DNA from: Gemmatimonadota bacterium
GTDB taxonomy: Bacteria; Gemmatimonadota; Gemmatimonadetes; Gemmatimonadales; GWC2-71-9
Direction: 5' to 3'
DNA: 37,544 bases
Assembly (NCBI GenBank): GCA_027294815.1
Contig: JAPULP010000200.1
Span: 1-37,544, forward strand
The notes under the pieces were generated by a model. It was not told the origin of the DNA. It ran no database searches and saw nothing but the letters and a program-made list of their open reading frames with translations. Both the position numbers and the translations under genes were made by a program. Numbering within the stretch: the stretch's first letter is position 1; the number at the start of each line of letters is the position of its first letter. Positions 7,436 to 32,017 of the stretch are shown in pieces.

Positions 7436-7470
7436 GGGAGCAGGGAGCAGGGAGCAGGGAGCGGGGAGCA
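7436..7470 (+). repeat. (GGGAGCA)5 tandem heptamer array (fourth unit is GGGAGCG) starting 2 nt after the stop codon
   Basis: Direct reading: units at 7436-7442, 7443-7449, 7450-7456, 7457-7463 and 7464-7470. Five G3-4 tracts are separated by 3-4 nt loops. Confidence 0.95.
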
Positions 7471-7503
7471 GCAAGCCCAAGGATCGTAGCCGGCTGGCCC
7501 CGG

Positions 7504-8976
7504 TTGGCTAACCCTTCTCAGCACTCAATACGTTATTTTTCCGTCGTGACGTACACACGTAGCGCATCGCTCCTACTCGCCTTGATCCCCTCATTCCATG
7601 CCTGTGAATGGGGGGAGGCTGGCAACCCCATCCGCGTCGCCTTCGCGGCCGAGTCCGCTACCCCGAACGACACCTCGGTCGTCTTCCGATTCCCGACCAG
7701 TGCGGGGCCAGGGGTTCACCTCTACACCTTCCCGCGTCTGACGGAGGCCGATTGGCATTTTGCCACGCCCAGGCTGGCGGTCCGCCGCCTGGTGGGTTTT
7801 GGGGTGTCTGAAGGCCAGGTGTACGTCGAGACGCAAGATTCGTCGCTGGTCGCCCTCGACCTGGAAAGCGGTCTGGCCTCCACGCTCGAAAGCGCGGTCT
7901 TCTCGACAGCCATGGGTCCCACCGGTGTGCCACACATCGTGGGCTTTGACGGCACGCTCGCGGCGGTAATCGATCGACACACCCAGCCATGGGATCCCGT
8001 GCTCGCAGAGTTGCCGACACGGGTATGGGGCACGACGCGGAGACGGCTACTGGCCTTGGTCGAGTCCGATCAAGGTAGGCGGGTCGACCTGTTCGAAAAC
8101 TCTTCCTTCATCGGGAGTCTCGACCTGCCAGCCGGGCTTACCGCGGTCACGAGGTGGGGGGACCTCGCCGTGGTGGCGGTCGATTCCGGACTGGTGTCAG
8201 TCCGCATGGATCCCAGTCGGGACGACACCGAGTTTTTCCCGATTCCTGGCGTCGTGGCCGCCATGGTGTTTTCCGCGGCCAGCCACCACCTCTTCGTGGC
8301 TACAGCCGATCTCCAGATTCGCGTGATCAACCGATTCTCTCTAGACGGCGGCGAAGGTGCAGTTCTCAGACAATACCCGCTCGCGGATCGGATCGAAGCC
8401 ATGCGCGCCGGATCGCAGGGGCGGTTGCTGCTGCTGAAACCGGAAGGTGTCGATTCGGTGTGGATCGCCGATGCCACCGAACTCACCCGCGTGGTAACCG
8501 TTCCAGGATCGTGGGATAGTGACCTCCCGCAAGTAGCAACCGACGGAACGGTTTTGGTACGGCAGGGAGATGACGTCGTCGCCATCGATCCCGAAACCGC
8601 CGCCGAGGTGGGTCGGATCGAAGATGGGGCCAAAGATCGTTGGCTGGTGGCCGCATGGAATCCGCGCCGGCCCACGCTCCAGTTGGCGGAGGAGGTTGAG
8701 ACCGGTCCGGATGAGGCAATCGACGAGGCAGATCGGCGGACGTACTATGCTCAGCTGAGCAGCACCTCAAACCAAGCGTGGGCGCTGGCGCGCCGCGATG
8801 AGTTGCGTGGCGCTCAATTGAACGCACAGGTCATCTATCCTGACGAGTACTACGACCGATACCGGGTCGTGCTTGGACCCTTCGACACATCGGAAGAGGC
8901 CGACAACATCGGTCGCCGGCTCGGACAGCCTTATTGGATCATCACTGTGCAGGATACGACGGCCACAAACCGATGA
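7504..8976 (+). CDS. Probable lipoprotein with a beta-propeller-like body and a C-terminal SPOR (septal peptidoglycan-binding) domain
   Basis: N-terminus ...TRSASLLLALIPSFHAC looks like a lipoprotein signal with a lipobox Cys. The start is uncertain: TTG at 7504 or GTG at 7546. C-terminus YYAQLSSTSNQAWALARRDELRGAQLNAQVIYPDEYYDRYRVVLGPFDTSEEADNIGRRLGQPYWIITV is SPOR-like. Confidence 0.7.
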   Translation: MANPSQHSIRYFSVVTYTRSASLLLALIPSFHACEWGEAGNPIRVAFAAESATPNDTSVVFRFPTSAGPGVHLYTFPRLTEADWHFATPRLAVRRLVGFGVSEGQVYVETQDSSLVALDLESGLASTLESAVFSTAMGPTGVPHIVGFDGTLAAVIDRHTQPWDPVLAELPTRVWGTTRRRLLALVESDQGRRVDLFENSSFIGSLDLPAGLTAVTRWGDLAVVAVDSGLVSVRMDPSRDDTEFFPIPGVVAAMVFSAASHHLFVATADLQIRVINRFSLDGGEGAVLRQYPLADRIEAMRAGSQGRLLLLKPEGVDSVWIADATELTRVVTVPGSWDSDLPQVATDGTVLVRQGDDVVAIDPETAAEVGRIEDGAKDRWLVAAWNPRRPTLQLAEEVETGPDEAIDEADRRTYYAQLSSTSNQAWALARRDELRGAQLNAQVIYPDEYYDRYRVVLGPFDTSEEADNIGRRLGQPYWIITVQDTTATNR

Positions 8977-10289
8977 CCGCCCGCGAGTTCGACCACGCGG
9001 CACTCGCCGACTACACCGTGGTCGCACTCATCTCAGCTACGCAAGACCACGAATGGGCCGCCGCCCAAGCCTGGGCCGTGGCCCGCGAAGCAACCCGTGG
9101 GAAGCCCAGGGTGGCGCTCGTAGACCTCTCCCTTGCCAGACCCGCGCTCGATGCCGGTGCGGCACTCCCGAGCGGAGGCGCCGAGGGGATCGTGGACGCG
9201 CTCCTGTACGACGCCTCCCTCACCGAGGTGGCACAACCACAGGACGAGCCGGGACTCCACTACCTCGGGGTCGGGACACCGACCGGCAACCCCCCGGAGG
9301 TGTGGGCCCACCCACGGTGGACGCGGCTGCACGCCGGGTTCAAGAGTCAGGGCGCGCTGTTGCTGCTATTCCTGCCCCCGGCGGCCATTCCACACCTCGC
9401 CCTCCAACCGGACGGTGTGATCATCCTCGCCCGCACCGGCTGGAGTCAGGAAGAGCAACGGCACCTAGGCGTGTCGAAGTGGCTGGAGCAGGGTATTCCC
9501 CTGCTAGCGGTGCTGTCGGAGCCAAGCACCGCCCCTCCGGCCCCGACCGGCGGACTTCGCGTGGCCCCACGTCGGCGGGGGAAGGGAAACCTGATGCTCG
9601 CGGCCGCTCTTGTTGTCGTCATCGCCGTTACGGCGGTGTGGGGGGTCTCCCGACTGTCGGAATCGCCCGCTGCGCCGCGGGAAACCTCGGTTCCGGTTAC
9701 AGAGCCGCTCGTTGCCACGCCCCCGCCCCCGCCCCCGCCCCCGGTTGAGCCCACCTCGACGGATATCGTGACGCCGCCCTCCGAGCCGCGGCGGCTCGAT
9801 ACGCTGTTCTATGCGATTCAAGTTGCCGCTTTCAACACGTCAGCTCGGGCCCTGGAATACGCTCACTCGCTCGAGGACCGGAGATTGGCCGCGGCCGTGA
9901 CCCCGGTCCGGGTCAGAGGCCGGGTCTGGTACCGCGTGATTCTGGGCGCGCTACCCACCTCGGCGGAGGCTCGCGCAGCCCTCCAGAGGCTCTGGCGTGA
10001 CGGCTTGGTGGCGAGTGGTGAGGGAGCTATCTTGCGCACTCCGCAGGCATTCGATCTGGGAACCCGCCCAAACGCCGACATGGCATGGGAAGAGACACAA
10101 CGGCTCCGCGAACGCGGCATCCCCGCATACACCGTAGAGGCGTCCCAGGGGACAGGGACAGGGGCGGGGGCGGCTCGGATACTCGTCGGCGCATTTGAAA
10201 CTCCCGACCAAACCGCGGTGGTCGAATCGTTGTTGACGGCCGCCGGATTGACGACAACCCTCGTGAATCGTACAGGGAACACACCATGA
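8973..10289 (+). CDS. 438-aa protein: N-terminal MinD/ParA/BY-kinase-like domain without a P-loop, one TM helix, a Pro-rich linker and two C-terminal SPOR domains
   Basis: ATG at 8973 overlaps the upstream stop (ATGA). The layout VVALISATQDHEWAAAQAWAVAREATRGKPRVALVDLSLARP...GLHYLGVGTPTGNPPEVW...LLLLFLPP...DGVIILARTG parallels SIMIBI/BY-kinase ATPases, but the Walker A GKT/S, the DxD and the Walker B Asp are all replaced. TM helix: LMLAAALVVVIAVTAVWGV. Linker contains PPPPPPPPP. SPOR-like segments: FYAIQVAAFNTSARALEYAHSLE...VWYRVILGALPTSAEARAAL and ARILVGAFETPDQTAVVESLL. Confidence 0.75.
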   Translation: MTAREFDHAALADYTVVALISATQDHEWAAAQAWAVAREATRGKPRVALVDLSLARPALDAGAALPSGGAEGIVDALLYDASLTEVAQPQDEPGLHYLGVGTPTGNPPEVWAHPRWTRLHAGFKSQGALLLLFLPPAAIPHLALQPDGVIILARTGWSQEEQRHLGVSKWLEQGIPLLAVLSEPSTAPPAPTGGLRVAPRRRGKGNLMLAAALVVVIAVTAVWGVSRLSESPAAPRETSVPVTEPLVATPPPPPPPPVEPTSTDIVTPPSEPRRLDTLFYAIQVAAFNTSARALEYAHSLEDRRLAAAVTPVRVRGRVWYRVILGALPTSAEARAALQRLWRDGLVASGEGAILRTPQAFDLGTRPNADMAWEETQRLRERGIPAYTVEASQGTGTGAGAARILVGAFETPDQTAVVESLLTAAGLTTTLVNRTGNTP

Positions 10290-13200
10290 AACTGACCCGG
10301 CTGGTGCTGTCGGGCTTCAAATCCTTCGCCGACAAAGTCGAACTGACGTTCGAAGACGGCATCACGTCCATCGTCGGGCCCAATGGGTGCGGAAAATCCA
10401 ACATCTCCGATGCGGTCAGGTGGGTGTTGGGCGAGCAGCGCGCGAAAATCCTCCGTGGCGCGCGGATGGAAGACATCATCTTCCAAGGCACCGCCAAGCG
10501 GAAACCGCTCAACCTTTCGGAAGTCTCACTCCACTTCGATAACAGCGACGAAACGCTACCGATCTCCTACCGTGAGGTCGTCGTAACGCGGCGGCTCACG
10601 CGAGCGGGCCTGAGTGAATACCTCGTCAACCAGCAGCCCGTGCGCTTGCGCGACGTGCAGGACCTCTTACGCGGCACCGGGTTGGGTGGCGAAGGGGGGG
10701 TGGTGATCGAAGCCCAAAGAATCGATCGCCTCTTGTCCGACCGGACCGAGGAGCGGCGCGCGCTGTTCGAGGAGGCAGCCGGCATCGGACTCTACCGAGA
10801 CCGGAAAACGACGACCGAACGGCGACTCGAGAAAACACTCGAAGACCTCAGGCGTTTGGACGATCTGATCTCGGAAATCCAAACGCAGGTGCGCAGCTTG
10901 GCGCGGCAACGTGGAAAAGCCGAACGGCACAAGCAACTCACCGAGGAACGATTTGGGATCGTGATGACGTTGGCACGACGCCGGCTCGCGCAGCTCGACG
11001 TGCAAATGGCAACGTTGAACACCCAAGAACAAGAGATCAGCGAAGCCCTACCTCGCGATCGTGAGTTGCTCAGTAAAGAGGAGCGGGAGCGGGAAGAACG
11101 CGTCCAGGCCCGCGCAACGGCCGAGGCACAACGAAACGAAATCGAGCGGCGTCTCGCCGAACGACGCCTGGAGGTTGGGAAGCTGGAGGGGGACCTCGAA
11201 TTGGCGAGCGAGCGACTGAAGAACGCGGTGGAGCGCAAGGCGCGCGCCCGCGAGGAGCGGATCCACGCCGACGCTCGAGCGGCACACGCCGACCGAGAGA
11301 AGGAGGAGGCGGCCGCGGAACGAGTAGCGGCCACCGAGGCACACCAATCGGTCCAGACCGAACTCGACCTGCGTGCCTCCGACGAGAAAGCGACGCGCGA
11401 CCGTTTGCTCGCACAGCGCGAGCGGGTGCGAGTGATGGGAGATGCGCTGCAGGAGCAAGCCGAAACCGGGGGCTCGCTCGCCGTGGAAATCGAGGCCCTC
11501 GAGCGCGACCTCGGCGACCTCCGCGCACAGGAGGCGGACGCCACAAAACGAAGTGCAGAGACCGTGACGCATAGCGAAGAGGCTCGGTTGAAACTGCAGG
11601 CGGCTTCAACGGAACTGGCCAAGCGGCAGCACACGGACGGTCAGGCATCGACCGAACTCGAGCGGGCGCGCCACGCCCTGGCCGGCGCGAAGGAACACGA
11701 GGCAGCCCTCTTGTTGGAGCGGCGTTCCGCCGAGGACCGTCGGGCACAGCTGAGCGCGCGGCGTGAAGCTATCGATGCGCTGGAGCGAGATCGCGTCGGT
11801 CTTGCACCGGGGGCGCGTAAGCTCCTCGAAAACCAAGATCGCTTCGGGAGCGGCGCGATCTTGGGACCGTTGAGCGATTTCCTCCGGTCTTCCGGCGCCG
11901 GCGCCGAAGTCGCCGAGAACATGCTGGCCGAATGGCTGCACGCGGTCGTGGTCAAAGACGAAGAAACCGTGGACACGGTACGCCGTTGGCACGAGGAAGA
12001 GCAGCCCGGACCGTTGGTGCTCCTTCCCGTAACGCCGGGCCCCACACGCGACGGCGACCCACCAGGCGACATCCAATTGGAGGTGGCAGAACCGGCCGGT
12101 TCGTGGGCCGCCGCCCTGCTCGCGGGCCACGCGCAATTGGACGACACAGGCACGGCCATCCGGCGGTCGAACGGAGCGGTGTTCCTTCCGGGCACCGAAG
12201 ACCGCAGCGGCCCCCTACAGCGGCGCGCCGAGATCGAACGATTGGGCGAAGAGGTCGCGGAGACGGAGTCGCAGGTCGCCCGGTTGGTCCGGGAGGCCAA
12301 GAACGCGGCGAGCGCGTTGTCGGACGCGGAAAGCAAACTCGAGATTGCAGCGCGGTCGTCCGATGAAACGCGACAAGCGTTGCACGAGCTCAAGGCGACT
12401 CACGGCGACGGCGAACGTGAGGTGCAGCGCGCGGAACGCGAGCGGCGGGAAGCCGTTGGGCACGCCACCCGAATCAAGAAGCGAATAGACGGACGAGCCG
12501 CCAGACTGCACAAAGCGCAGTCCGAGTTACAGTCGTTGAAGCGCGGACGCGCCCAGGCAGAAGCCGAACTCGAGACACAGCGGTCGTTACTGCAACATCA
12601 GGAAACAGATCAGGAAACAGCGCGTGAAAACCGCGTGCACTGGCAGGTTGAAGAGGCTCAAGTATCGGTCAGGGAACAGGCGGCTCGGGAGCGCGAAGAG
12701 CGCGCGGAGAAAGCGCTAGGAGAGGCAACCACCGAAATCAAATCGCTCGAGCGGGAGATTGCCGAGATCGGTGAGGCCACCGGAGGCGCGGAAGAACAAC
12801 AAGCACAGTGGACCGACCAGATGGCTGAACGCAAAGCCGAAGTGGCAGAGCTGGCAACGGCAGCGCAGAACGCACAGCGGGCGGTGCAACTCGCCGACGA
12901 AACGTTGCAGATCAGCGATCAGGGTCTCCAATCCACCCGCGAAAGCGTACAACAACTCTCGGAAAGATCTCACCGCGTCGAACTCGAGCGGGCGGAGATC
13001 GAAGGACGCCGCAACGCCATCGTCGAACGGGTGGAGGCTGAGTGGCGTATGCCGTTAGCCGAGCTCTTGGAGACCGCCCCTGCGGTGGAAGGCGACGAGG
13101 AGGACCTGCAACAGGAAGCGGACTTGCTCGCCGACCGTCTGCAGGCGGGGGGTCCGGTGAATCCCCTGGCGGCGCAGGAGCATGACGAGGAGAAGACACG

Positions 13201-13759: not shown

Positions 13760-13819
13760 CGTGCGGGCGGCGACGCTCGGGGTCCTACTCGGAGCCATCC
13801 TTCCCCCAACGATGGAAGC

Positions 13820-14584
13820 ATGGAACTAGTCGTCCTCGGAACCGGTACGGTAGCACCCTCCTCCACGCGGACTGCGGCTGCTCATTGGGTCACCACCGGT
13901 TCGACCCGACTGTTGCTCGACTGCGGAGCGGGAACCATGCACCGCATGGCGACGTGCAACATACCGTGGCCCGACCTCACACACGTGGCGCTCACACATT
14001 TTCACGTCGATCATTGGGGCGAGGTCCCCATGCTGCTTTTTGCTCTTAGATGGGGAACCGAACCAGCACGCAGTCAACCGTTGAACGTGATCGGTCCGAC
14101 AGGCCTCATGGAACGAATGCGACACGCGGCTCGGGCTCTGGGCGACTGGGTCCTCGAGCCCGGATATCCGTTGCACATACACGAACTACAGCCGGGAGCT
14201 ACGTATTCGCTCGAAGACGACGTGGTATTGGAAACGTGCAAGACGCCGCACACCGACGAGAGCATGGCGTACTCCGTCAGGGACAACTCGGGCCGTTTGG
14301 TGTACACAGGAGATACCGGAGCCAGCGACTCCCTCGCGGATTGGGCGCTCGATTGCGATCTCCTCTTGGCCGAGTGTTCCCTACCGGAAGATCGGGGTAT
14401 CGATACGCATCTCACCCCGAAACGGGCCGGAGAACTGGCGCGAAAGGCCAGAGCCGGACGGCTCGTGCTGACACATTTCTATCCGCCGGTGGAGGAAGTG
14501 GATCCCGCGGCGATCGCCGCAGTTGCGTACAGTGGCACGGTCGTTGCCGCAAGAGATGGTGACCGTTTTACGGTGGGAGCTTGA
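13820..14584 (+). CDS. MBL-fold metallo-hydrolase (RNase Z/ElaC-like)
   Basis: N-terminus MELVVLGTGT...LLLDCGAG and the HxHxDH motif (THFHVDHWGE). Confidence 0.8.
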   Translation: MELVVLGTGTVAPSSTRTAAAHWVTTGSTRLLLDCGAGTMHRMATCNIPWPDLTHVALTHFHVDHWGEVPMLLFALRWGTEPARSQPLNVIGPTGLMERMRHAARALGDWVLEPGYPLHIHELQPGATYSLEDDVVLETCKTPHTDESMAYSVRDNSGRLVYTGDTGASDSLADWALDCDLLLAECSLPEDRGIDTHLTPKRAGELARKARAGRLVLTHFYPPVEEVDPAAIAAVAYSGTVVAARDGDRFTVGA

Positions 14585-14597
14585 GAGGGTCTAGACC

Positions 14598-15236
14598 ATG
14601 AAAAAAATCGTTTTCGTGGGACTGGTGCTGGCGGCCCCTCCGGCGGCAGCGCAGACCGCAACCGCAGTGCTCGCAACCGCGCAGGCCACCTATCACCAGA
14701 TCGAGACCTTGCACGCAGAATTTACGCAGATGCTGGTCAATCCGATGATGGGCGATGAAACGACGACGGGGACGTTGTACTTATCTCCGCCGCATCGCTT
14801 CTCCATGCGTTTCTCCGACCCCGAGGGCGACCGTATCGTCGGGGACGGCACATGGCTGTGGCTATATACACCCAGCACGACTCCCAACCAGGTGATTCGA
14901 CAGGTGATTCCCGAGGTGGGACCCGCTACACCAAATCTGTTCGGACAGTTCGTGGACAGACCGCTGGAACGCTACGACGCGACTTACGCGGGTATCGATT
15001 CGGTTGCGGGTTACCGCGTAGAAAACGTACGATTGATACCGCGTGTGGAAGGGATTCCGTTTCGCAGTGTGGTGATTTCGCTGTCGGCTGACGGCATGCT
15101 ACGGAAAGTTGATCTTGTCGAAGACTCGGGTCAGCGACGTACGCTGGTGTTCGACTCAATAACCGTCAACGCGCCAATTCCGGAGGAGGAACTGGTGTTT
15201 CGCGTGCCGCGAGGGACGAGGGTTGTGACGAATTGA
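14598..15236 (+). CDS. lolA: Outer-membrane lipoprotein carrier protein LolA-like
   Basis: Signal peptide MKKIVFVGLVLAAPPAAAQ. LolA-like pattern: Y..IETLHAEFTQ....G.LYL..P.RF...F....GDRIVGDGTWLWLYTP..NQV. Confidence 0.75.
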   Translation: MKKIVFVGLVLAAPPAAAQTATAVLATAQATYHQIETLHAEFTQMLVNPMMGDETTTGTLYLSPPHRFSMRFSDPEGDRIVGDGTWLWLYTPSTTPNQVIRQVIPEVGPATPNLFGQFVDRPLERYDATYAGIDSVAGYRVENVRLIPRVEGIPFRSVVISLSADGMLRKVDLVEDSGQRRTLVFDSITVNAPIPEEELVFRVPRGTRVVTN

Positions 15237-15298
15237 GTCGGACGGTCTGACGGCGGATTTCAGATTGCAGATTTGCAATTTGCAATTTGCAATTTGAA
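15235..15298 (+). repeat. Composite short-repeat tract after lolA: AGTCGGAC/GGTCTGAC octamer pair followed by about five ATTTGCA heptamers
   Basis: Direct reading: AGTCGGACGGTCTGAC starts inside the lolA stop codon. Heptamers at 15271-15277, 15278-15284 and 15285-15291 are ATTTGCA. They are flanked by the variants AGATTGCAG (15262-15270) and ATTTGAA (15292-15298). The TTGCAA cores are self-complementary. Confidence 0.9.
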
Positions 15299-15314
15299 AT
15301 CGCTTCAGCGTCTC

Positions 15315-15342
15315 TGCTCCCTGCTCCCTGCTCCCTGCTCCC
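15315..15342 (-). repeat. (GGGAGCA)4 on the - strand, 9 nt downstream of the S41 protease stop codon
   Basis: Plus strand reads TGCTCCC x4 (15315-15321, 15322-15328, 15329-15335, 15336-15342). Same unit as at 7436-7470, again in the sense orientation of the gene it follows. Confidence 0.95.
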
Positions 15343-15351
15343 AAGTATCTC

Positions 15352-16941
15352 CTACCTACTCTGACCCGCCAGCTCAAACAGCTCCTCCTGACTCCCGACT
15401 CCGGCCAGCATCTCCACCGCCAGCGACACCATCCCGTCGTTAGCCACGTGGTATTGCATTTCGGCGTCGCGTCCAAATACGTACCGCAGAGTTCGTCGGT
15501 GGAGCTCCGCATTGACGATATCGATCGCGCCGTTCCAAATGGCGTTGGGCATCCGAACGTCGCGCGCACGAATTCGCCGCAGCAGATCGCTCCGCATCGC
15601 AGCCGTTACTTCGAACGAATCGGGATCGGACGATTGCAGCTCCTCCCTCAACTCCAAAGCGTAGCTAGAAACAACATCGAAGAAGCCTTGCAGGTTCGAT
15701 CCGAGCTGTGTTTGAAAGCGTCGCTCGGCCGTCGTGACGGTGTCGGCGGCGATGACGATGTCGGGATGAATTCCGCCACCACCCGTGAGTGCTCTACCGG
15801 CATCACTACGGAACTCCGACGCTACCGCCAGCGAGTCGGGCGACGAACCTGGCACCGGCAACTCCGGCGTTCCTTCGTCGCGCTCTCGATGAATCGACCT
15901 GCCGCTCGGCGTGAACCACCGGCTCGTCGTCAGGCGGAGCGCCTCGGAGGGCCCAATCTGAAAAACGGCCTGGACCACCCCTTTTCCGAAACTGGGCCTG
16001 CCGAGCACCAAGGCCCGATCGTGATCCTGCAACGCGCCGGCGACGATCTCTGCGGCGCTCGCCGAGAATTCGTTCACGAGCACCACGAGCGGCATGTCAC
16101 CCCACTCCTGCCGTGCAGTCGCATCGTACGAGCGAGACGTGCCGGCCGCACGCCCGTGCGTCGTCAGCACAACCTCGCCACGGTCGAGGAACAGATCGGA
16201 TACCGCGACGCCCTGATCGAGCAAACCTACCGGATTGAACCGCACGTCGAGGATCAAAGCGCGCGCGCCGTCGTTGCGTAACTTGGTGATTGCCTCGCGG
16301 AGTTCGTCGGCTGAGCGCGCACCCACGGTCTCGAGATGGACATATCCGACACTCGGCGCCACCAAGGCCACGTGACGAACCGACGACACGCGAATCTGCC
16401 CGCGCTCGATGTCAAAACGGAGTGGACGGGGAAGACCGGAGCGCATAACTGTGAGGGACACCGCCGTTCCGGCCTCACCCCGCAAAGAGGCCGTGGCTTT
16501 TTCGGACGACCATCCGAACGTCGAAACACCCTCGACTTCAACGATGCGATCCCCCGGCTCGATTCCCGCCTCCTCGGCCGGCGTGCCGATCAGCGGCGTG
16601 ACCACCGTGAGCCAGCCATCGGTGACCTCGATGCGTACACCGAGTCCGGCGTAGTCTCCGCGGGTGATCAGCGTCAACTCGTCGAGGTCGTCGGCTCGAA
16701 GAAACCCCGTGTACGGATCGCCGAGATTCTTGAGCATGCCGTCGATCGCGAGGTCGTAGAGCTGGCCCTTTTCGAGAGAATCGACGTAGAGATCGGCCAC
16801 CCGTTGGATGACGCTGGAAAACACCTGGGCCCGTTGATACACTTCGGACGAACGAGATGCTCCTCGCCCGAGGAGCCATGCTCCTGAGACGAACGCAACC
16901 AGCGTCACCATGGTGAGAAGGACGATGCTGCGTCGGCTCAC
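15352..16941 (-). CDS. S41-family carboxy-terminal processing protease with a PDZ domain
   Basis: PDZ-like GLGVRIEVTDGWLTVVTPLIGTPAEEAGIEPGDRIVEVEG and the catalytic-region motif LVNEFSASAAEIVAGALQD. I chose the GTG at 16941 because GGAGGG lies 6 nt upstream and it gives a signal-anchor N-terminus (VSRRSIVLLTMVTLVAFVSGAWLLG). The ORF-track start at 17085 would overlap tmk. Confidence 0.85.
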   Translation of the reverse strand: MSRRSIVLLTMVTLVAFVSGAWLLGRGASRSSEVYQRAQVFSSVIQRVADLYVDSLEKGQLYDLAIDGMLKNLGDPYTGFLRADDLDELTLITRGDYAGLGVRIEVTDGWLTVVTPLIGTPAEEAGIEPGDRIVEVEGVSTFGWSSEKATASLRGEAGTAVSLTVMRSGLPRPLRFDIERGQIRVSSVRHVALVAPSVGYVHLETVGARSADELREAITKLRNDGARALILDVRFNPVGLLDQGVAVSDLFLDRGEVVLTTHGRAAGTSRSYDATARQEWGDMPLVVLVNEFSASAAEIVAGALQDHDRALVLGRPSFGKGVVQAVFQIGPSEALRLTTSRWFTPSGRSIHRERDEGTPELPVPGSSPDSLAVASEFRSDAGRALTGGGGIHPDIVIAADTVTTAERRFQTQLGSNLQGFFDVVSSYALELREELQSSDPDSFEVTAAMRSDLLRRIRARDVRMPNAIWNGAIDIVNAELHRRTLRYVFGRDAEMQYHVANDGMVSLAVEMLAGVGSQEELFELAGQSR

Positions 16942-16975
16942 AGGACACCCTCCGACGAATGAGATGTTCTGCCTG

Positions 16976-17614
16976 TCAACTCCGTCCCTCCTCCGATGTT
17001 TCCGCCAGGTGACGCTCCACAACGCCCCAAGCTGCCTGCTCCACCGCGTCCGCCGATTTGGTCGCGTCGACGTGCACCACACCATTCCCCGAGGCCTGGA
17101 GAAACACCTCTGCCACGCGTTGGTGCCACACGCGGCCCTCGCGCTCGATCCGATCCGGCTCCTTGCCGTCGTGGGCCTGGCGTTTCAGACCCAACTCGGC
17201 CGGGAGGTCCAACACGATGGTCAAGTCCGGCCTGAGGCCGTCGGTCGCCAACTCGTTAGCCCCCATGACCCGTTCCCGGGGGAGACCCCGGCCTGCTATC
17301 TGGTACGCCTCCGTAGAAAGGTCGTAGCGGTCACTCAACACCACCCTTCCGCTCTCCAGCGCTGGGCGAATGACCTTGGCCACCTGGTCTGCACGCGCCG
17401 CAAGCATGAGGAATAGCTCCGCAAGCGGGGTGGCGTGCATTTCGGCATCGAGGGCGGCCGCACGCGCCGCCTCAGCGAGCGGCGTCCCACCCGGCTGCCG
17501 CACCTCGAGCACATCATGCCCAGCGGCACGCAGGCGGCTCGCCAAGCGCCCGACCAGGGTTGTTTTCCCCGCCCCCTCGGGGCCGTCTACGACGATGAAT
17601 GTCCCCACCCTCAC
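16976..17614 (-). CDS. tmk: Thymidylate kinase
   Basis: FIVVDGPEGAGKTTLV P-loop, ...VRQPGGTPLAE..., ...VLSDRYDLSTEAYQ... GTG start directly abuts the prmC stop. Confidence 0.9.
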   Translation of the reverse strand: MRVGTFIVVDGPEGAGKTTLVGRLASRLRAAGHDVLEVRQPGGTPLAEAARAAALDAEMHATPLAELFLMLAARADQVAKVIRPALESGRVVLSDRYDLSTEAYQIAGRGLPRERVMGANELATDGLRPDLTIVLDLPAELGLKRQAHDGKEPDRIEREGRVWHQRVAEVFLQASGNGVVHVDATKSADAVEQAAWGVVERHLAETSEEGRS

Positions 17615-20600: not shown

Positions 20601-20675
20601 GAGTGCAGGTGACCCTATGCCTAGCTTGCCGCCGGACGAAACCGCCAGATTACACGCTGTGGAAGGGATGACGGC

Positions 20676-21539: not shown

Positions 21540-21597
21540 CACTCGGGAGGCCACCGAGCGGTTGCAACAGTTGGGCGGATTGTAATAACATAGGCGC

Positions 21598-23051: not shown

Positions 23052-23058
23052 CTGGGGC

Positions 23059-25925: not shown

Positions 25926-26928
25926 TCGGCGCCCCCGTCGTCGCAGACCGGTAGATCGCGTCCATCACCCGGTGCACCGTCATTTGCTCGCTAAGGTCGG
26001 AGCGCTCCACCTCGCCTCGAATGAGTGCACCAAAATGCAACCACAGTGAGATCGAGGCGGCCGTGAACGGATTCTTTCGTTCTGACGTTCCCGTCGGCGT
26101 CACGTTCACCGGCGATCCGTGCATCTCCTTGAATACCGCCAATGGGCTCACCGTGCCGGAACCTTCCGACCCCAACAACTCGAACCAGTAGCGCCCCGCA
26201 TCTCCAACGTAGTGCCACGAGACGTCGACCGTGATCGACACGCCGTGCTCGCACGTGATCAACGCAACACCCGAATCTTCTACTTCCGCCCCTGCCTCGT
26301 CTTGGGAGCCGAAGGACGCGGTCACGTGGCACGGCTTCGGCCAATCCAGCATCCACAGCGCCAAATCGACCAGCGGGAGACCCAAATCGAGCATCGCGCC
26401 GCCTCCCGACTGGGCCCGGTGCCGCCTCCACCCCAACCCGCGCCGTGCCGGTTTGAACTTGAACCAACCGGTACGGACCGCCTGTAGCGTCCCCAGCTCA
26501 CCACCATCGAGGAATTGCTTCACCGCCTGCACGTCCGGGCGGAAGCGGTTCTGCATCGCCACCAGAACGACTCGGTCCGCCCGCTTCTGCTCCGCGATGA
26601 CATCTTCAACGCCCGCCAGCGACAACCCCAGCGGACGCTCGCACAGGACATGGGCGCCCGCGGCGAGGGCTGTCTTTAGGTGCACCTCGTGAAGGTGATT
26701 GGGCGTGCAGACCGCCACCGCATCCGGCTTTGAACGTTCGAGGAGATGTTCGATATCGTCGAAGACGTCTGGGATTTCAAAACGCGTGGCGAGAGACCGC
26801 GCCTTCGCCACATCGTTGTCGCAAATCGATACCAGCTCGAACTCGTCCAAGCGAGAAAGCGCCGGCAGATGCGCCACCTGAGCGACGGCACCAGCACCAA
26901 TCACCCCGACTCGCACCGGTCCCGACAT
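25915..26928 (-). CDS. Gfo/Idh/MocA-family NAD(P)-dependent oxidoreductase
   Basis: VRVGVIGAGAVAQVAHLPAL Rossmann N-terminus and ...AVAVCTPNHLHEVHLKTALAAGAHVLCERPL. The 3' end overlaps the convergent HD-GYP gene by 11 nt. Confidence 0.85.
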   Translation of the reverse strand: MSGPVRVGVIGAGAVAQVAHLPALSRLDEFELVSICDNDVAKARSLATRFEIPDVFDDIEHLLERSKPDAVAVCTPNHLHEVHLKTALAAGAHVLCERPLGLSLAGVEDVIAEQKRADRVVLVAMQNRFRPDVQAVKQFLDGGELGTLQAVRTGWFKFKPARRGLGWRRHRAQSGGGAMLDLGLPLVDLALWMLDWPKPCHVTASFGSQDEAGAEVEDSGVALITCEHGVSITVDVSWHYVGDAGRYWFELLGSEGSGTVSPLAVFKEMHGSPVNVTPTGTSERKNPFTAASISLWLHFGALIRGEVERSDLSEQMTVHRVMDAIYRSATTGAPIKL

Positions 26929-27572
26929 TAGTTGCTACCAAGAATCCGATACATGAAACCTGCCCGCACGGAGGCCATGATCAGCTCGCTACTCAAGGTG
27001 CCCCGTATGTCCGTCGTGAAATTAAAGTGGTTGGCCAACGCAACCTCCATCCCCAGCGAGAGGTCCGCGCTCGCCGCGATGGTATCGAGGGCGTCCTCGA
27101 CAAAGGTGTTCTCAATTGCGGTTCCTGAGCCGTTGCGAATGTGAGCGCCAAATCCCAAACCGATATAGCTGAGAAACCGTGGCCCGGATGGGAAGACGTA
27201 CTGCAGGTCGAGGGTGGCTTCCAAGTTGGACCACCTGATCTCCCCGACGTCCACCGTCGCATCACCAGTCGGATCCTGCACGATCTGGAGGAGTTGACGC
27301 TGAAACTCCAGAATTTCTTCTTGATTCAACTGACCCTTGAAGTAGTTGGCGCCGAACATTACGCGCACCCGCGGCGCAATCATGCCGTAATCCACCCGCA
27401 CACCAGCGGACACTTCGGTCGTCAGCCGGTTCGAGCCCACAGGGCCGATGTCGAACCCGATACCTGAAAAGCCGAGGCCCTCATAGCTGAACTGCTCGAG
27501 GAAACTCTGGGCCGTAACCGAGCCGGGTGTGAGGAGCAAGATGGCGGCGATGGTAAGAGCTTTAACGGACAT
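26928..27572 (-). CDS. Small outer-membrane beta-barrel protein (function unknown)
   Basis: Signal peptide MSVKALTIAAILLLTPGSVTAQ. Alternating beta-strand pattern rich in G/Y/F. Its stop overlaps the oxidoreductase start (TAATG). Confidence 0.6.
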   Translation of the reverse strand: MSVKALTIAAILLLTPGSVTAQSFLEQFSYEGLGFSGIGFDIGPVGSNRLTTEVSAGVRVDYGMIAPRVRVMFGANYFKGQLNQEEILEFQRQLLQIVQDPTGDATVDVGEIRWSNLEATLDLQYVFPSGPRFLSYIGLGFGAHIRNGSGTAIENTFVEDALDTIAASADLSLGMEVALANHFNFTTDIRGTLSSELIMASVRAGFMYRILGSN

Positions 27573-27584
27573 AAGTCTGGGTTT

Positions 27585-27656
27585 TAGGGTGTAGGTTGTA
27601 GGGTGTAGTCACCACCCCACCCCAACTCTGTTTCGATCCTGTCCGACTGTCCGACT
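27585..27656. repeat. Short-repeat tract between the SpoIID-like gene and the OM barrel gene: TAGGGTG/TAGGTTG/TAGGGTG heptamers, a C-rich stretch, and (GTCCGACT)2
   Basis: Direct reading: heptamers at 27585-27591, 27592-27598 and 27599-27605; CACCACCCCACCCC; octamers at 27641-27648 and 27649-27656. The octamer is the reverse complement of the AGTCGGAC unit seen at 15235. Confidence 0.9.
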
Positions 27657-27666
27657 GTTCTTTCCG

Positions 27667-28965
27667 TCATTCCATCGTAGTCAGCGTCGTCCCAGGGTAG
27701 TACGTATCCAGTATCGCCCGGCCATCCTGGCCCGCCCGTGCCCGTCCCATCGCACCCCACTGGCACATTCCCACGCCATGCCCCCATCCCGCACCAGCGG
27801 CGGTCAGTCGGGTGAGTCGATCGTTGGCCCGCTCCGCCGTGAGTTGCACGGCGGTGCTGCCGAGGGCACGGCCGCCGGGTTCTTGAAACACGGCGCGTAT
27901 GTCGGGGCCAAACACCGGAATCTCTCCCTGCGCCACCTCGACCCGGATCTCGGTAGCCCGACCGGACGTGCCGGTACTCCGTACCTCGACGTTACGAATA
28001 TTCGACACGAAGTAAGCGTCGATACCCAAAGCTCGAGGCATGGTGGTCTTCAGCATGTCAGTCAGCTCGGCGCCCGACCATTCGACCTTCCAACGAAACT
28101 GGGGCGATCGTTCGCAATAGTATCCGTTCCCAAAGACGTCCGAAACCGACGCCAGATACGGCTGCGAGCGGACGTTTCGAAACGATTCTTCCGCCTCAGC
28201 GGTCGCAAACCCACACGTCGAGTGAAAGAACGCCGTGATGGGACGGCCGCCCAGCATCATCACCAACCCCTCCGTGGCCCGTACCGCTCGACTGCTAATA
28301 TCGGATTCGTTGTATACGCCGCGGTAAGCCTGATCCGACACGCCGGCGCGAAGGTCGAAACCCAGGGCCCCGAAACGCCCCATATTAGCCATTGCATACG
28401 TGCGCGAAGCAATCGCCTGAGCCTCGAGCGCGGCTCGCTCGGACTCCGGTCGACGCCCTAGCTCCGCACCGATGACCCCCGCCACGTACTCCTCGATCCC
28501 GATTTCGTTCACCACGGTCACGGTCCCGTCGCGCTGAGTCACACGCACCGTACCGCGGTAGGAATTCCCGTCTACAGTGACCAAGCCCCCGTCGCCGCGA
28601 AACTCCAACGAATCGAACTGGCCGGAACCACGCCCACCCGCCGCCGACACCCCGTCGCCGGCGGCGGTGACGTTCACCGACTCTCCGGAACCCAAGCGGA
28701 TCGCCACCCTGCCGTTTTCCTCGGCGATGACGGCACCCCGAGACCCGACGCGGACGGTGGCAGCCCCAACGACGATCCCGATACGCACGCGCCTTCCCGA
28801 CAGCCGCGGCCCGGCGAGGGCGAGGGCGGGGGCGGGGGCGGGGGCGGCACCGGCTCGGGGTCCGCCTCCCGAGGCGCAGCTAGTGAGGCCCATGCCCCCT
28901 ACAACCACCGCGGCGAGTTTTTTCAGATGGGTTCGGCGGCTTTCCCGCGGGCCAGACTCCGCCAT
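27667..28965 (-). CDS. SpoIID/LytB-domain protein (peptidoglycan remodelling), probable lipoprotein
   Basis: C-terminal GHGVGMCQWGAMGRA motif. Lipobox in LAAVVVGGMGLTSC. The ATG at 28965 overlaps the rimO stop (TGATG). The ORF-track extension to 29094 is rejected. Confidence 0.85.
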   Translation of the reverse strand: MAESGPRESRRTHLKKLAAVVVGGMGLTSCASGGGPRAGAAPAPAPALALAGPRLSGRRVRIGIVVGAATVRVGSRGAVIAEENGRVAIRLGSGESVNVTAAGDGVSAAGGRGSGQFDSLEFRGDGGLVTVDGNSYRGTVRVTQRDGTVTVVNEIGIEEYVAGVIGAELGRRPESERAALEAQAIASRTYAMANMGRFGALGFDLRAGVSDQAYRGVYNESDISSRAVRATEGLVMMLGGRPITAFFHSTCGFATAEAEESFRNVRSQPYLASVSDVFGNGYYCERSPQFRWKVEWSGAELTDMLKTTMPRALGIDAYFVSNIRNVEVRSTGTSGRATEIRVEVAQGEIPVFGPDIRAVFQEPGGRALGSTAVQLTAERANDRLTRLTAAGAGWGHGVGMCQWGAMGRARAGQDGRAILDTYYPGTTLTTME

Positions 28966-30281
28966 CACGAGATGGCTACGGCTCGGAAATCGTAATCGAT
29001 GCACTCCTCGATTCGGCTGCGAACGAACTCGCCGGGTTTGGCCCAACCTCCTCGTACCACGGTCGTCACGCCGTCCACGTCGTCCGCCTGCCACATGACC
29101 CGCCCAACGTGAGTGGCGCCGCTGTCATCGGGCTCGATCACGCTTTCGATCAGCACGTCGGTTTCCCGGCCTACGTATCGGCCGAGGCGCTCCTCCGAAA
29201 TCATCCGCTGCAGGTCGAGGAGCTGTTCCTGCCGCTCCCGTTTGACGTCCTCGGGAACGTCGTCGGGATCTTGCGACGCTCGAGTCCCTTCCTGCTCCGA
29301 ATAGGTGAAGACCCCGAGTCGTTCGAAGCAGATCTCGTCCGCAAAATCGAGCAGTTCGGCAAAATCTTCCTCCGTTTCCCCCGGAAACCCAACGATAGTC
29401 GTGGTGCGAATGGCAATATCGGGAACGGCGTCGCGAAGCCACACGACTTTTTCGCGGATCGTCTCTTTGCGCTCGGGGCGTCGCATGCGTTTCAGAACAC
29501 GGTTGGATGCATGTTGGATCGGAATGTCGATATACGGAACAATACGTTTCTCCGATGCCATCAGATTCACCAACTCGTCGGTCAAACCCGCGGAATAGAC
29601 GTAGAGGAGCCGGAACCATGGAACGGAGGTTCCCTCGAGCAGTGCGCGCAACAGATCCGTAAGCGTCGGTCCTTCCCTCCCGTAGTCCCGCCCATAATGA
29701 CCGAGGTCTTGAGCCACCACGTTGATCTCCCGGGCGCCTTGGGCTTCGAGTTGCTGAGCCTCGACAACGAGTCGCTCGAGGGGTTCGGAGCGGTGCTTGC
29801 CGCGCATCAAGGGAATGGCACAAAAAGCACAGGTATGATCGCAACCCTCGGAGATCTTCAGATAGCGGACGTGGGTGTCGTCGCCCAAGTAGTGGCGCAC
29901 GCCTGGATGCTCCGCGATGGGATCTTGTATGAGACCCCGGGCGGCAAGCTCTGGAGCCAGCTTGTGCAACTCCCCGAAGTTCAAGAAGAGATCGACCTCG
30001 GGAATTTCGGCCTCGAGTTCCTTCTGATATCGCTGCACCAAACAACCCACGGCGACGACCGCCTTGACCACGCCGTCCTTCTTCAGCTCGCCAGCGGCGA
30101 TCATCGCCTCGATCGATTCACGTTTTGCCGCGTCGATGAAGCCGCACGTGTTCACCAACACGACATCCGCCGTCTCCAACTCGGAAACGACCTCGGCGCC
30201 GTGTCCCACCAGCTCCCCGACGAGACGCTCGGAATCCACGGTGGCCTTGTCGCAACCCATTGAGATGACACCGAGTCTCAC
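28965..30281 (-). CDS. rimO: Ribosomal protein S12 methylthiotransferase RimO (radical SAM, MTTase family)
   Basis: UPF0004 N-terminal domain (GVISMGCDKATVDSE...VLVNTCGFI), radical SAM motif LKISEGCDHTCAFCAIPLMRG, TRAM-like C-terminus. GTG start. Confidence 0.8.
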   Translation of the reverse strand: MRLGVISMGCDKATVDSERLVGELVGHGAEVVSELETADVVLVNTCGFIDAAKRESIEAMIAAGELKKDGVVKAVVAVGCLVQRYQKELEAEIPEVDLFLNFGELHKLAPELAARGLIQDPIAEHPGVRHYLGDDTHVRYLKISEGCDHTCAFCAIPLMRGKHRSEPLERLVVEAQQLEAQGAREINVVAQDLGHYGRDYGREGPTLTDLLRALLEGTSVPWFRLLYVYSAGLTDELVNLMASEKRIVPYIDIPIQHASNRVLKRMRRPERKETIREKVVWLRDAVPDIAIRTTTIVGFPGETEEDFAELLDFADEICFERLGVFTYSEQEGTRASQDPDDVPEDVKRERQEQLLDLQRMISEERLGRYVGRETDVLIESVIEPDDSGATHVGRVMWQADDVDGVTTVVRGGWAKPGEFVRSRIEECIDYDFRAVAIS

Positions 30282-30352
30282 GGGCTGGCCTGCACCGGTG
30301 TGGGCTGGGGAGCTATTTGCATAGCGGGAATATAGAGACTAGGAGATCGAGG

Positions 30353-30432
30353 GGCAGTGGAGGCAGTGGAGGCAGTGGAGGCAGTGAGGGTTACGGTTCA
30401 TCTCCACCTCCCTGCCCACTGCCTACTGCCTA
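30353..30432 (-). repeat. Inverted pair of tandem arrays forming a long hairpin immediately after the sigma factor gene (probable terminator)
   Basis: Read on the - strand: TAG(stop)GCAG TAGGCAG TGGGCAG GGAGGTGGAGA, a roughly 13-nt loop, then (TCCACTGCC)x3-4. On the + strand this is (GGCAGTGGA)x3 plus GGCAGTGAG at 30353-30388 and CTGCCCA/CTGCCTA/CTGCCTA at 30412-30432. The stop codon at 30430-32 is part of the first heptamer. Confidence 0.85.
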
Positions 30433-31287
30433 CGTAAGAAAGCTCTCCAGCGCCCGTGCCCGGCTTACGTGCCGGAGCCGGGCCAGAGCTTTTTCTTTTA
30501 TCTGGCGGACTCGCTCGCGGGTAATCCCGAGCAGCCCTCCAATCTCCTCGAGCGTCATTGCCTCTTGGGAATCGAGGCCGAAGTAGAGCCGCAAGATTTT
30601 CGCTTCACGTTCTTTCAACGTGCCGAGAACCTCTTCGATGGAATTGCTAAGCGCCCGCTCGAACGTCTGATCGTCCGGCCCGGGGCTTGTCTCGTCGGGC
30701 AGATAGTCGAGGAGCTTGTTGTCCTCACCGGGGGTGAGGGGTGCATCGAGCGAAAGGTGACTCCGAGAGATCGCCAGAGTCTTGGCGACCTCGTCTCTCG
30801 GAATGTCCATCCCCTCGGCGATCTCTTCGATCGTCGGCTCGCGTCCCAGCTCTTGCTGCAAAGCCGACGATCGCTTGCCGATCCGATGGAGCGTGCCCGC
30901 CCGGTTCAAGGGAACGCGCACGATTCTGCTCTGCTCTGCCAGGGCCTGAAGAATGGCCTGACGAATCCACCACACGGCATACGAGATGAACTTGATGCCT
31001 TTGGTCTCGTCGAATTTGTGGGCGGCGCGAATGAGGCCGAGGTTCCCCTCGTTGATCAGATCCGACAGGCTGACGCCCTGGTTCTGATATTTTTTGGCCA
31101 CCGAAACCACGAACCGCAGGTTGCTGCGGACGAGTTTGTCGAGCGCCTCCGCGCAGCTCTTGTGGATCTCGACGGCCAGCGAGACCTCATCCTCGCGCTT
31201 CAACAGGGGATACTTGCTGATCTCCCGCAAGTATTGGTCTAAGGAGCCTTCTTCGTTTCCAATTTTCTTGGCAGCACCTACTCGCAT
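30430..31287 (-). CDS. rpoD: RpoD-family primary-like sigma factor (short form without region 1.1)
   Basis: Region 1.2: SLDQYLREISKYPLL. Region 2: DLINEGNLGLIRAAHKFDETKGIKFISYAVWWIRQAI. Region 4: MTLEEIGGLLGITRERVRQIKEKAL. The ATG at 31287 is preferred over the TTG at 31356. Confidence 0.85.
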   Translation of the reverse strand: MRVGAAKKIGNEEGSLDQYLREISKYPLLKREDEVSLAVEIHKSCAEALDKLVRSNLRFVVSVAKKYQNQGVSLSDLINEGNLGLIRAAHKFDETKGIKFISYAVWWIRQAILQALAEQSRIVRVPLNRAGTLHRIGKRSSALQQELGREPTIEEIAEGMDIPRDEVAKTLAISRSHLSLDAPLTPGEDNKLLDYLPDETSPGPDDQTFERALSNSIEEVLGTLKEREAKILRLYFGLDSQEAMTLEEIGGLLGITRERVRQIKEKALARLRHVSRARALESFLT

Positions 31288-31587
31288 AGAACCCGCAATC
31301 CCTCCGCGATGCTCGGAAGAGCCGTGTGCTTCAAGTAACCGGTATCCATCCAGCAATTACTGCCTTCGCGAGTACCGGAGTTGTAACCGTCGCATATGAA
31401 CAAACGCCAGAATCGGTCGCACAAGGGTTCCGACGTCTGGAAGAGAATCGGTTTGACTGTATGGAGTCCCGAGATCCTGACGTTGGAAATCCCAACATCA
31501 TCGAGTGACGGGCGGTACTGCCCGGAAGGTGTCGAACGTTCAGTCGTCGCAAGTCTCCGAAGCTCTAAACTAGGTGGTTACATTATG

Positions 31588-31857
31588 TTAGCGGCTCTTG
31601 GGATAAGGCGCAACTGCCACGGACCAACCCCGAGCGCCCGCCCAGGTCCGCAGTCCGCGCTGGAGTTCGGTGCGCGAGCACTGGTGAGACAACCGTATCG
31701 CGACGCAACACGCCGTGTCGGACGCCTCGAAATCGGCCTCAATGACGCGGCATTCCGGCATATCGCACAGCGCCCGATCATCCAGAACAGCCCCACCCGC
31801 ATTGACAATGACGGCCACGGAAAGGTTGGAGCTCATGACCAACAACATGCTCGTCAC
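31588..31857 (-). CDS. Possible small protein (about 82-89 aa) of unknown function between the NtrC-type regulator and the sigma factor gene
   Basis: This is the only ORF in the 31288-32014 gap with coding-like third-position G/C (about three quarters by hand count). Candidate starts are GTG at 31857, ATG at 31848 and ATG at 31836. None has a good Shine-Dalgarno sequence. No recognisable motif. Confidence 0.3.
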   Translation of the reverse strand: MTSMLLVMSSNLSVAVIVNAGGAVLDDRALCDMPECRVIEADFEASDTACCVAIRLSHQCSRTELQRGLRTWAGARGWSVAVAPYPKSR

Positions 31858-31910
31858 CAGCAGAGAGGGAGTACGCGAGGTTATGCGGATGGTGGCGAAC
31901 TTTTGCGAAG

Positions 31911-32017
31911 TAGGGTGTGGGGTGTAGGGTGTGGGGTGTAGGGATTAAGGTGCCTGATTCGGGGATCGAAGGCTGCCACGAATGACACAAAACCTACACC
32001 CTACACCCTACACCCTA
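31911..32017 (-). repeat. Inverted heptamer arrays flanking a roughly 50-nt loop directly after the NtrC-type gene (probable terminator or REP-like element)
   Basis: On the + strand, TAGGGTG TGGGGTG TAGGGTG TGGGGTG TAGGGAT at 31911-31945 and (CACCCTA)x3 at 31997-32017. On the - strand the gene's TAG stop (32015-32017) is the first triplet of (TAGGGTG)x3. The arms can form a perfect stem of at least 12 bp (GGGUGUAGGGUG with CACCCUACACCC). Confidence 0.9.

Follow-up and report, generated by a model that had tools for sequence, protein, structure and literature searches.

Tandem heptamer and octamer arrays behind stop codons of soil Gemmatimonadales: inverted pairing, unit turnover and a probable origin by slippage

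A stretch of 37,544 nucleotides (nt) of contig JAPULP010000200.1 (assembly GCA_027294815.1), in the following called the window, contains nine arrays in which units of 7-9 nt are repeated in tandem, distributed over five intergenic tracts (Table 1). The flanking genes are ordinary chromosomal genes and encode an H+-PPase, a PD40-repeat protein, SPOR proteins, SMC, LolA, an S41 peptidase, PrmC, RF1, a MiaB-like methylthiotransferase, SpoIID, an outer membrane protein (OMP), a sigma-70 factor and an NtrC-type regulator. The source is a soil bacterium of the Gemmatimonadales (Gemmatimonadota): metagenome-assembled genomes (MAGs) of Gemmatimonadales encode SMC proteins with 86-87% identity to that of the window, and synteny is conserved. 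The original prediction, which was made from the sequence alone, had already judged that the DNA does not look cyanobacterial, and it had proposed that the arrays are a genuine family that abuts stop codons. Tandem Repeats Finder and direct reading of the spacer sequences recovered every array on its list; what had been counted as six tracts is grouped here as nine arrays in five tracts.

The arrays of the window are real and non-random. Four perfect period-7 runs of at least 2.5 units are present, compared to a mean of 0.04 in 100 dinucleotide shuffles, and for periods 8 and 9 the count is 1 versus 0 in the shuffles. All arrays lie outside confidently called genes, and the remaining repeats of the window, with periods of 6, 9, 12 or 18, are found in coding sequence. 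All five tracts start 0-10 nt past a stop codon. The distance of at most 40 nt that had been claimed for every array thus holds for the tract starts, but the arrays at 27585 and 31910 lie up to about 60-70 nt away. In two cases the TAG stop codon is itself part of an array unit, namely that of the sigma-factor gene (30430-30432) and that of the NtrC-type gene (32015-32017).

Table 1. Tandem arrays of 7-9-nt units in the window.
Unit and copy number	Position	Strand	Description
GGGAGCA x5.1	7436-7471	+	single array; G-rich on the sense strand
ATTTGCA/TTGCAAT x5	15265-15300		hairpin apex, self-complementary via TTGCAA
CTGCTCC (= GGGAGCA) x4.1	15314-15342	-	single array in sense orientation
TAGGGTG x3.4	27585-27608		faces the CACCCCA-type tract 27609-27627
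CTGTCCGA x2.5 on the + strand (CAGTCGGA on the sense strand)	27639-27658	-	eroded octamer array
GGCAGTGGA x3.8	30353-30386		hairpin arm, period 9
CTGCCTA x3.1	30412-30433		hairpin arm, period 7
GTAGGGT/GTGGGGT x4.9	31910-31943		hairpin arm
CCTACAC x3.6	31993-32017		hairpin arm

Assembly error as the source of the arrays was considered and rejected, because independent assemblies reproduce them. LolA, OMP and the MiaB-like protein were found by look-ups of the exact sequences, which gave no record for S41, SMC and the sigma factor. Short metagenome contigs from independent samples encode the LolA protein, and one ENA contig with an identical LolA protein spans the LolA/S41 spacer; it lacks one of the ATTTGCA units and two of the CTGCTCC units of the window. 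The comparison of orthologous spacers, which had been proposed as a check, revealed copy-number variation at both of these arrays. The SpoIID-OMP spacer is identical in three independent assemblies save one single-nucleotide polymorphism, and a contig with the MiaB-like gene reproduces three GGCAGTGGA units before it ends. Short-read contigs of this organism (L001-L006 and L228-L229 in our numbering of related loci) repeatedly stop inside or at the edge of arrays, and the arrays thus fragment metagenome assemblies.

The arrays are a lineage-wide feature of a clade of soil Gemmatimonadales. The comparative set comprised 1.06 Mb of Gemmatimonadota loci with 219 arrays, and a metagenome scan with the MiaB-like protein yielded 80 further soil loci with a matching gene neighbourhood. 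Because the related loci represent two genomic regions in orthologous copies, array counts are not independent, and the p-values given below overstate significance and are indicative only. Period-7 arrays occur at 142 per Mb and period-8 arrays at 63 per Mb, compared to 6.6 per Mb for either period in a Bacillaceae control of 1.5 Mb from the same SMC search; other periods are unremarkable in the Gemmatimonadota set. The density ranges from 0.45 to 2.5 arrays per 10 kb between sub-lineages and is 1.9 per 10 kb in the window. Among the relatives, L007 (MAG CBDFJJ01) is rich in arrays and L012 (complete chromosome OZ252291.1) is poor in them.

The arrays are short, with a median of 29 nt, and the copy number of the period-7 arrays peaks at four, with very few exceeding five units. 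As had been noticed for the window, unit types recur at separate loci, and the families GGGAGCR, GTCGGAC, GGCAGTR and TAGGGTG recur at unrelated sites in the window and its relatives; in total, 112 distinct units are found among the 219 arrays. Of the co-directional spacers 22% have an array, of the convergent ones 15% and of the divergent ones 3% (Fisher test of co-directional versus divergent, p = 0.004). Within co-directional spacers they are not nearer to the stop codon than to the next start codon (61 versus 57), because they fill these spacers. Unpaired arrays are mostly G-rich on the sense strand, both inside coding sequences (40 versus 6) and at 3' ends (28 versus 17). This agrees with the two GGGAGCA arrays of the window, which lie on opposite strands and are both sense-oriented relative to the preceding gene, as had been predicted.

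Many arrays form inverted pairs: for 74 of the 219, the reverse-complement unit forms a partner array no more than 150 nt away, and no array has a direct partner. The resulting stems comprise 20-51 bp, with fold energies of -30 to -94 kcal/mol. The G-rich arm is located 5' of the C-rich arm in 36 of 37 pairs; this polarity is strand-symmetric, so that an RNA transcribed from either direction starts with the G arm. Sense and antisense fold energies are alike (mean difference -0.5 kcal/mol, p = 0.49), and a comparison of G.U with A.C pairs (G.U pairs 65 versus 60) also gives no signal of selection at the RNA level. The minimum free energy (MFE) of each window tract was compared with that of 200 shuffles, and three of the five tracts fold far better than the shuffles; the tracts at 7436 and 27584 do not. 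Such inverted pairs, which form long G-arm-first hairpins and are the dominant architecture, had been mentioned only in passing by the original prediction.

Orthologous sites have kept the position of the arrays, their period and the complementarity of their arms across lineages, while the unit sequence has been replaced. At the stop codon of the PD40/peptidase-like gene (TGA, 7432-7434), past which the array begins after 2 nt, the three closest genomes carry GGGAGCA x5.1 (window), GGGAGCN x7.3 (L007) and GTGGGCA x7.1 (L013). This array has no hairpin partner and does not fold better than shuffles (z +2.1); it includes a canonical G-quadruplex (G4) motif at 7436-7459. The gene itself (4201-7434, 1077 amino acids) and the array that follows it are found in the window, L007 and L013 only. 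L012, L014 and L018 have no homologue of the PD40 gene at that place; the spacer was read for L012 and L014 only.

The convergent LolA/S41 spacer contains a hairpin tract (15235-15319) directly after the LolA stop codon (15234-15236), with an MFE of -43.6 kcal/mol, a z-score of -4.7 and none of 200 shuffles as stable. Its outer stem is formed by GTCGGAC-type degenerate octamers (15237-15258), which pair with 15301-15319. Octamers of the AGTCGGAC type had indeed been predicted here, but there are only about 2.5 degenerate copies. The second GGGAGCA array sits 10 nt past the TAG (15352-15354) of the S41 peptidase gene and contains a canonical G4 motif on the minus strand (15319-15342). In the window this spacer is made up of arrays over 115 nt, and in L013 it is about 30 nt long and consists of (GAATCTA)x4.6; in the more distant L012, L014 and L010 it comprises about 20-35 nt and no array. 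In L007 this spacer is occupied by an IS-like element (about 16090-17425), which is about 1.3 kb long and has TTCTAGCAGGTTGCGGAAAAA as its terminal inverted repeats.

At the SpoIID-OMP junction the 27584-27627 tract has its G-rich arm first and its C-rich arm second on the minus strand, which is the sense strand. The two arms pair weakly, the fold is not significant (MFE -24.2 kcal/mol, z 0.1), and 13 nt separate the end of the tract from the start codon of the OMP gene (27572). The octamer array of this junction starts 9 nt past the SpoIID stop codon (27667-27669). Most lineages have inverted octamer arrays here, for example GGTCGGAC/CTGTCCGC in L215, and the units drift between lineages (AGGCGGTC, GGGCGGTT, GGTCGGAC, GATGGAAT), while the period stays at 8. 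The octamer array of the window is an eroded orthologue of this series.

Unit turnover is most extensive at the 3' end of the sigma-factor gene. In the window, a hairpin at 30348-30434 has arms that share a GGCAG core in spite of their different periods of 9 and 7 (MFE -46.2 kcal/mol, z -4.0, none of 200 shuffles as stable). About 25 of 62 related lineages have an inverted-array hairpin at this site that abuts the stop codon, with at least 15 unrelated units, which include GTGAAAA, CGTGAAA, GGGAGAA, GGTGCGC, GGGAGCG, GGGAGTG, GTGCGTG, CGGGGAA and GTGGGGAA. In most of the other lineages the spacer is 27 nt long and holds a small simple hairpin. In most relatives a yajQ-like gene (MA..SFDISTGADLQEVDNAVNQ) is located between the sigma-factor and the MiaB-like genes; it is absent from L146, L151 and the window, which retains a relic, TATATTCCCGCTATG (30282-30345, minus strand). 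Nearly all lineages have a TATATT/TAGATT box 10-19 nt before the start codon in the region downstream of the sigma-factor gene, which may be the -10 element of a short-leader transcript.

The most stable fold among the window tracts is that of the hairpin at 31908-32020 (MFE -65.9 kcal/mol, z -7.9 on the plus strand; -54.7 kcal/mol, z -6.9 on the minus strand), which includes a canonical G4 motif at 31913-31936. Its first arm overlaps a mechanically derived open reading frame (ORF, 31396-31941), which is probably not a gene because it has no Pfam match and no homologue in relatives. The region between the NtrC-type and the sigma-factor genes (31357-32014) is an unusually long non-coding stretch of about 650 nt.

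That no array lies inside a coding sequence, as had been claimed, is true for the window but not for its relatives, which carry in-frame arrays, each of them confirmed by Pfam and protein alignments. In Lnt, in-frame arrays are located in the linker that joins the LNT_N domain to the CN_hydrolase domain, for example GGGAGCG x4, which is translated into GSGERGAGSGS. In an N-domain loop of hydantoinase A an inverted pair of GGGGACG x4 and CCCGTCC x4 inserts about 20 residues not found in other lineages (insertion peptide GTGDGGRGT...PVPPPSSPVP), and a loop of hydantoinase B also contains an in-frame array. In-frame cases were located in L160 (16009-16037 and 17272-17344) and also in L164, L154, L212 and L221. 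The signal peptide of the OMP can likewise be encoded by an array: in L221 (13823-13901), as well as in L216, L182 and L188, the inverted octamers between SpoIID and OMP extend over the OMP start codon, and the predicted signal peptide is translated from them (MERWKVGMMECLFVLLLSIFPSFHLSA|QG in L221). With the stop codon of SpoIID only 1-3 nt upstream, translational coupling through a very stable hairpin is suggested. The coding arrays are confined to the linker, to loops or to the signal peptide, their inverted pairs are as perfect as the intergenic ones, and array-free orthologues often hold a short proto-version at the equivalent place. Arrays without stop codons can fuse neighbouring ORFs in annotation, as exemplified by a 909-amino-acid Lnt-hydantoinase "fusion" in L161.

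These patterns are probably best explained by repeats that are generated by slippage, have arms that are matched at the DNA level and pass a filter of selection. The arrays would be hypermutable simple-sequence repeats with a register of 7-8 nt, to which slipped-strand replication adds, or from which it removes, whole units; this would account for the uniformity within arrays and for the copy-number differences between strains, which are observed along with the replacement of units between lineages. Quasi-palindrome correction by intramolecular template switching is an established mutagenic process in E. coli, and the same process probably holds the arms complementary. Maintenance at the DNA level is suggested because complementarity survives full unit turnover, also inside coding sequences, and shows no strand asymmetry. 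An RNA hairpin has no obvious use inside coding regions, and complementarity is therefore most likely kept at the DNA level. Selection would then let arrays persist where they are tolerated, after stop codons in co-directional and convergent spacers and, if the frame is kept, in linkers, loops and the signal peptide, and would purge them from divergent promoter regions. The observed distribution shows both features, arrays at tolerated sites and a depletion in divergent spacers. As a consequence, the transcript of the upstream gene would end in a very stable hairpin or a G-rich tract, which probably affects 3'-end formation, processing or stability; we regard this as a secondary effect and not as the cause of the family's existence. 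The deep conservation of the hairpin at the sigma-factor 3' end suggests co-option at some sites.

Several points weigh against this explanation. Slippage and template switching are deduced from patterns, and the counts that underlie these patterns stem from non-independent orthologous loci. Genes were called with a home-made hexamer-score caller, and starts beside arrays are uncertain, so that the assignment as coding or non-coding is uncertain near gene starts. The G-arm-first polarity, the limit of about four to five units and the recurring unit families are not predicted by simple slippage. Furthermore, the sigma-factor hairpin persists in lineages in which the flanking proteins are only about 70% identical, and the array-free lineages have a small hairpin at that site; both observations fit structural selection better than neutrality.

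Structural selection is the core of the explanation that the arrays are selected RNA structures, that is, terminators without a U-tract, insulators or 3' stabilizers that block exonucleases, the periodic stems of which tolerate insertions and deletions. We consider it possible but rather doubtful. It would fit the location of all five tracts directly behind stop codons, the depletion between divergent genes, and the fact that the three well-folding tracts are the sole 3' ends of the window with outlying stability. At the sigma-factor gene a hairpin has been kept through full unit turnover, with a small hairpin as a substitute in array-free lineages. In addition, canonical terminators of the hairpin-plus-T type are not in excess in the window (12 found versus 15-17 expected per half-window, all within genes), so that another termination signal would be needed. 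The scans for canonical terminators and promoters gave no enrichment in the window and no terminator-like site at the arrays. However, the array stems are not followed by a U-tract or T-run, at 20-50 bp they far exceed known terminators, and neither stability nor G.U pairs are biased towards the sense strand. Two of the five tracts do not fold, hairpins are altogether absent from most of the window's 3' ends that have long spacers, and equally perfect inverted pairs occur inside coding sequences and over a start codon and signal peptide. The terminator or stabilizer role that had been proposed for the arrays thus retains some plausibility, but as a general role it is disfavoured by the missing U-tract, the missing asymmetry and the state of the other 3' ends. 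Somewhat less probable still, and in our opinion unlikely, is that the inverted arrays are an actively maintained device, either an evolvable terminator or insulator with a periodic stem, an RNase III site, or the product of a new replication or repair process that works in steps of 7-8 nt. Such a device would fit a site that retains a hairpin of 20-50 bp in lineages with flanking proteins of only about 70% identity, the two arms changing together through more than 15 unrelated units and the G-rich arm invariably in first place. If one of the former variants were true, a device of GC-rich bacteria without U-tract terminators would have been found; if the latter were true, a palindrome-building and polarizing process would be common to Gemmatimonadota, Xanthomonas and Nostoc.

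The other explanations concern the units themselves. G-quadruplex elements, whether of DNA or of RNA, would explain a copy number that peaks at four by the need for four G-tracts, as proposed for Xanthomonas and Nostoc, as well as the G-rich sense strand of most single arrays. Three window arrays, those with the canonical motifs described above, match G3+N1-7 x4, but the other six do not. G3 runs are present in only 3 of the 9 window arrays, and a G3/C3 run is present in the unit of just 95 of the 219 arrays (43%). The median copy number is virtually the same with and without a G3 run (3.9 versus 4.0, p = 0.25), units such as ATTTGCA, GAATCTA, GTGAAAA and ATTGCGG and the octamers are unable to form a G4, and in inverted pairs the duplex or hairpin competes with it. 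The G-quadruplex role that had been suggested is therefore not general, and we regard it as very unlikely to explain the arrays. A small non-autonomous mobile element, similar to miniature inverted-repeat transposable elements or REPINs, that inserts after and sometimes in frame into genes was rejected as highly improbable. Recurring unit families, in-frame insertions in protein loops and presence or absence between lineages are expected for such an element, but loci with a common unit share nothing else: loops and flanks have nothing in common, the two TAGGGTG loci differ wholly outside the units, and the number of distinct units is very high. On reading the spacers no terminal repeats or target-site duplications were noticed, although no dedicated search was made, and the short proto-versions in array-free orthologues point to growth in situ. 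In addition, the different periods of the two arms at 30353 and 30412 show that arms expand independently. Tandem arrays near gene boundaries that vary in copy number between strains are also the classic layout of cooperative binding sites and contingency loci. The units are, however, far too diverse for a single sequence-specific regulator, be it a protein or an RNA, which makes the protein-binding role that had been proposed unlikely. The flanking genes belong to housekeeping functions (SMC, LolA, the RF1 neighbourhood, MiaB-like, sigma factor), and the arrays come after genes, with a depletion in divergent promoter regions, and do not occupy promoters or 5' coding regions. Surface or virulence genes with phase-variable simple-sequence repeats carry them in the promoter or the 5' coding region, where changes in unit number switch expression; this does not apply to the window arrays. 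Binding sites or phase-variation switches are thus extremely improbable, the least probable of the explanations considered.

Tandem heptamers have been found before in other phyla. The short tandemly repeated repetitive (STRR) sequences of heterocystous cyanobacteria (Calothrix/Nostoc) comprise several unit types per genome and are mostly intergenic, dispersed and variable between strains, and their arrays can be much longer. The arrays described here share with them the tandem heptamers, the multiplicity of units, the mostly intergenic location and the variability between strains, but unit sequences and phylum differ. Three tandem heptanucleotides are on record for Calothrix PCC 7601 (cited in Rehm et al., 2015; PMC4692102). 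The STRR family had been named as the known precedent, which is a fair analogy, but the closest precedent are the heptamers of Xanthomonas and Nostoc (PMC4692102). These have the units GGGAATC and GGGGA(C/T)T with the consensus GGGNATC and a preference for four units, are strongly biased towards intergenic regions and lie on the sense strand within 50 bp past the stop codon (Rehm et al., 2015; PMC4692102). They are depleted between divergent ORFs and form 70-75 convergent inverted pairs, inverted pairing being reported as rare in Nostoc, and between species their position and their type as single or paired are conserved, while length and sequence vary (PMC4692102). Arrays of this type are abundant genome-wide, with hundreds of sites along the chromosome; no link to surface genes or mobile elements was found, and their function was left unresolved (PMC4692102).

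The Gemmatimonadota arrays agree with this description in their period of 7, their number of about four units, the strong bias towards intergenic sites, the post-stop position on the sense strand and the scarcity in divergent spacers. They agree with it also in a position and a single or paired type that are kept while length and sequence vary, and in having no connection with surface genes or mobile elements. Convergent inverted pairs are also common to both, and "convergent" in Xanthomonas denotes the same G-arm-first polarity. The arrays are thus of the same kind, and Gemmatimonadota are a new host and not the host of a new kind of element. Nevertheless, there are differences: a single consensus does not exist here, octamers are common, no unit of the window matches GGGNATC, less than half of the arrays are G4-capable and the preference for four units is independent of G4. 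Moreover, arrays of the Gemmatimonadota, another phylum, are also found in frame in protein loops and a signal peptide. A literature search found no report of such repeats in Gemmatimonadota, and the phylum is not mentioned by Huang and Mrazek (2014).

A looser relative of the arrays, as are the STRR sequences, is the heptamer TAACTGA, one fixed unit that occurs in 2-6 copies in Beggiatoaceae, cyanobacteria and Bacteroidetes, mostly a few nt upstream of start codons, with one indirect repeat among 170 sets, and that was proposed to be a binding site for a post-transcriptional regulator (MacGregor, 2015; PMC4679880). It resembles the present arrays as an intergenic heptamer beside housekeeping genes with occasional copies inside ORFs, and differs from their many units, post-stop position and frequent inverted pairs. 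REP/REPIN and Rickettsia palindromic elements are dispersed hairpins of conserved sequence at gene 3' ends; REPINs are mobilized by the RAYT transposase, and the Rickettsia elements also insert in frame into protein-coding genes. In contrast, the loci described here have only the architecture in common, not the sequence, and their stems consist of tandem units grown in situ. Intrinsic terminators, which consist of a GC-rich stem of 5-14 bp followed by a U-tract, are similar in that a stable GC-rich hairpin is located directly 3' of the stop codon, but the array hairpins have no U-tract, are found at a minority of 3' ends and also occur inside coding sequences.

The results extend the host range of heptamer arrays to the Gemmatimonadota, a poorly studied but abundant soil phylum. 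The many units that are not G-rich imply that G-quadruplexes, the favoured explanation for repeats of this kind, cannot account for them in general. Any mechanism has to account for three regularities, namely, the G-arm-first polarity, the limit of about four units and arm complementarity through unit turnover. Polarity, the four-unit limit, the small recurring vocabulary of units and the constant period are the features that are most likely to yield something new. In practical terms, metagenome assemblies from short reads break at the arrays, and annotations can acquire spurious gene fusions and N-terminal extensions from them. Proteins, too, receive in-frame peptide insertions and even signal-peptide sequence from the arrays.

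Some further observations concern the remainder of the window. At the gathering score no Rfam family was found in it, nor were a tRNA or a tmRNA. A scan of viral contigs for (GGGAGCA)3 gave 58 matches of mixed and probably coding origin and is uninformative. The hexamers CGCCCC x4.3 (9718-9743) and GGCGGG x5.8 (28813-28847) lie within the genes for a SPOR-domain protein and SpoIID, respectively, and are ordinary in-frame low-complexity coding repeats that are distinct from the heptamer family. At 2023-2134 an 18-nt unit is repeated 6.2 times in frame and encodes (KGSDKE)n at the C-terminal end of the ORF 1606/1681-2142; this tail is lineage-specific, because only residues 26-125 of the protein align in L007.

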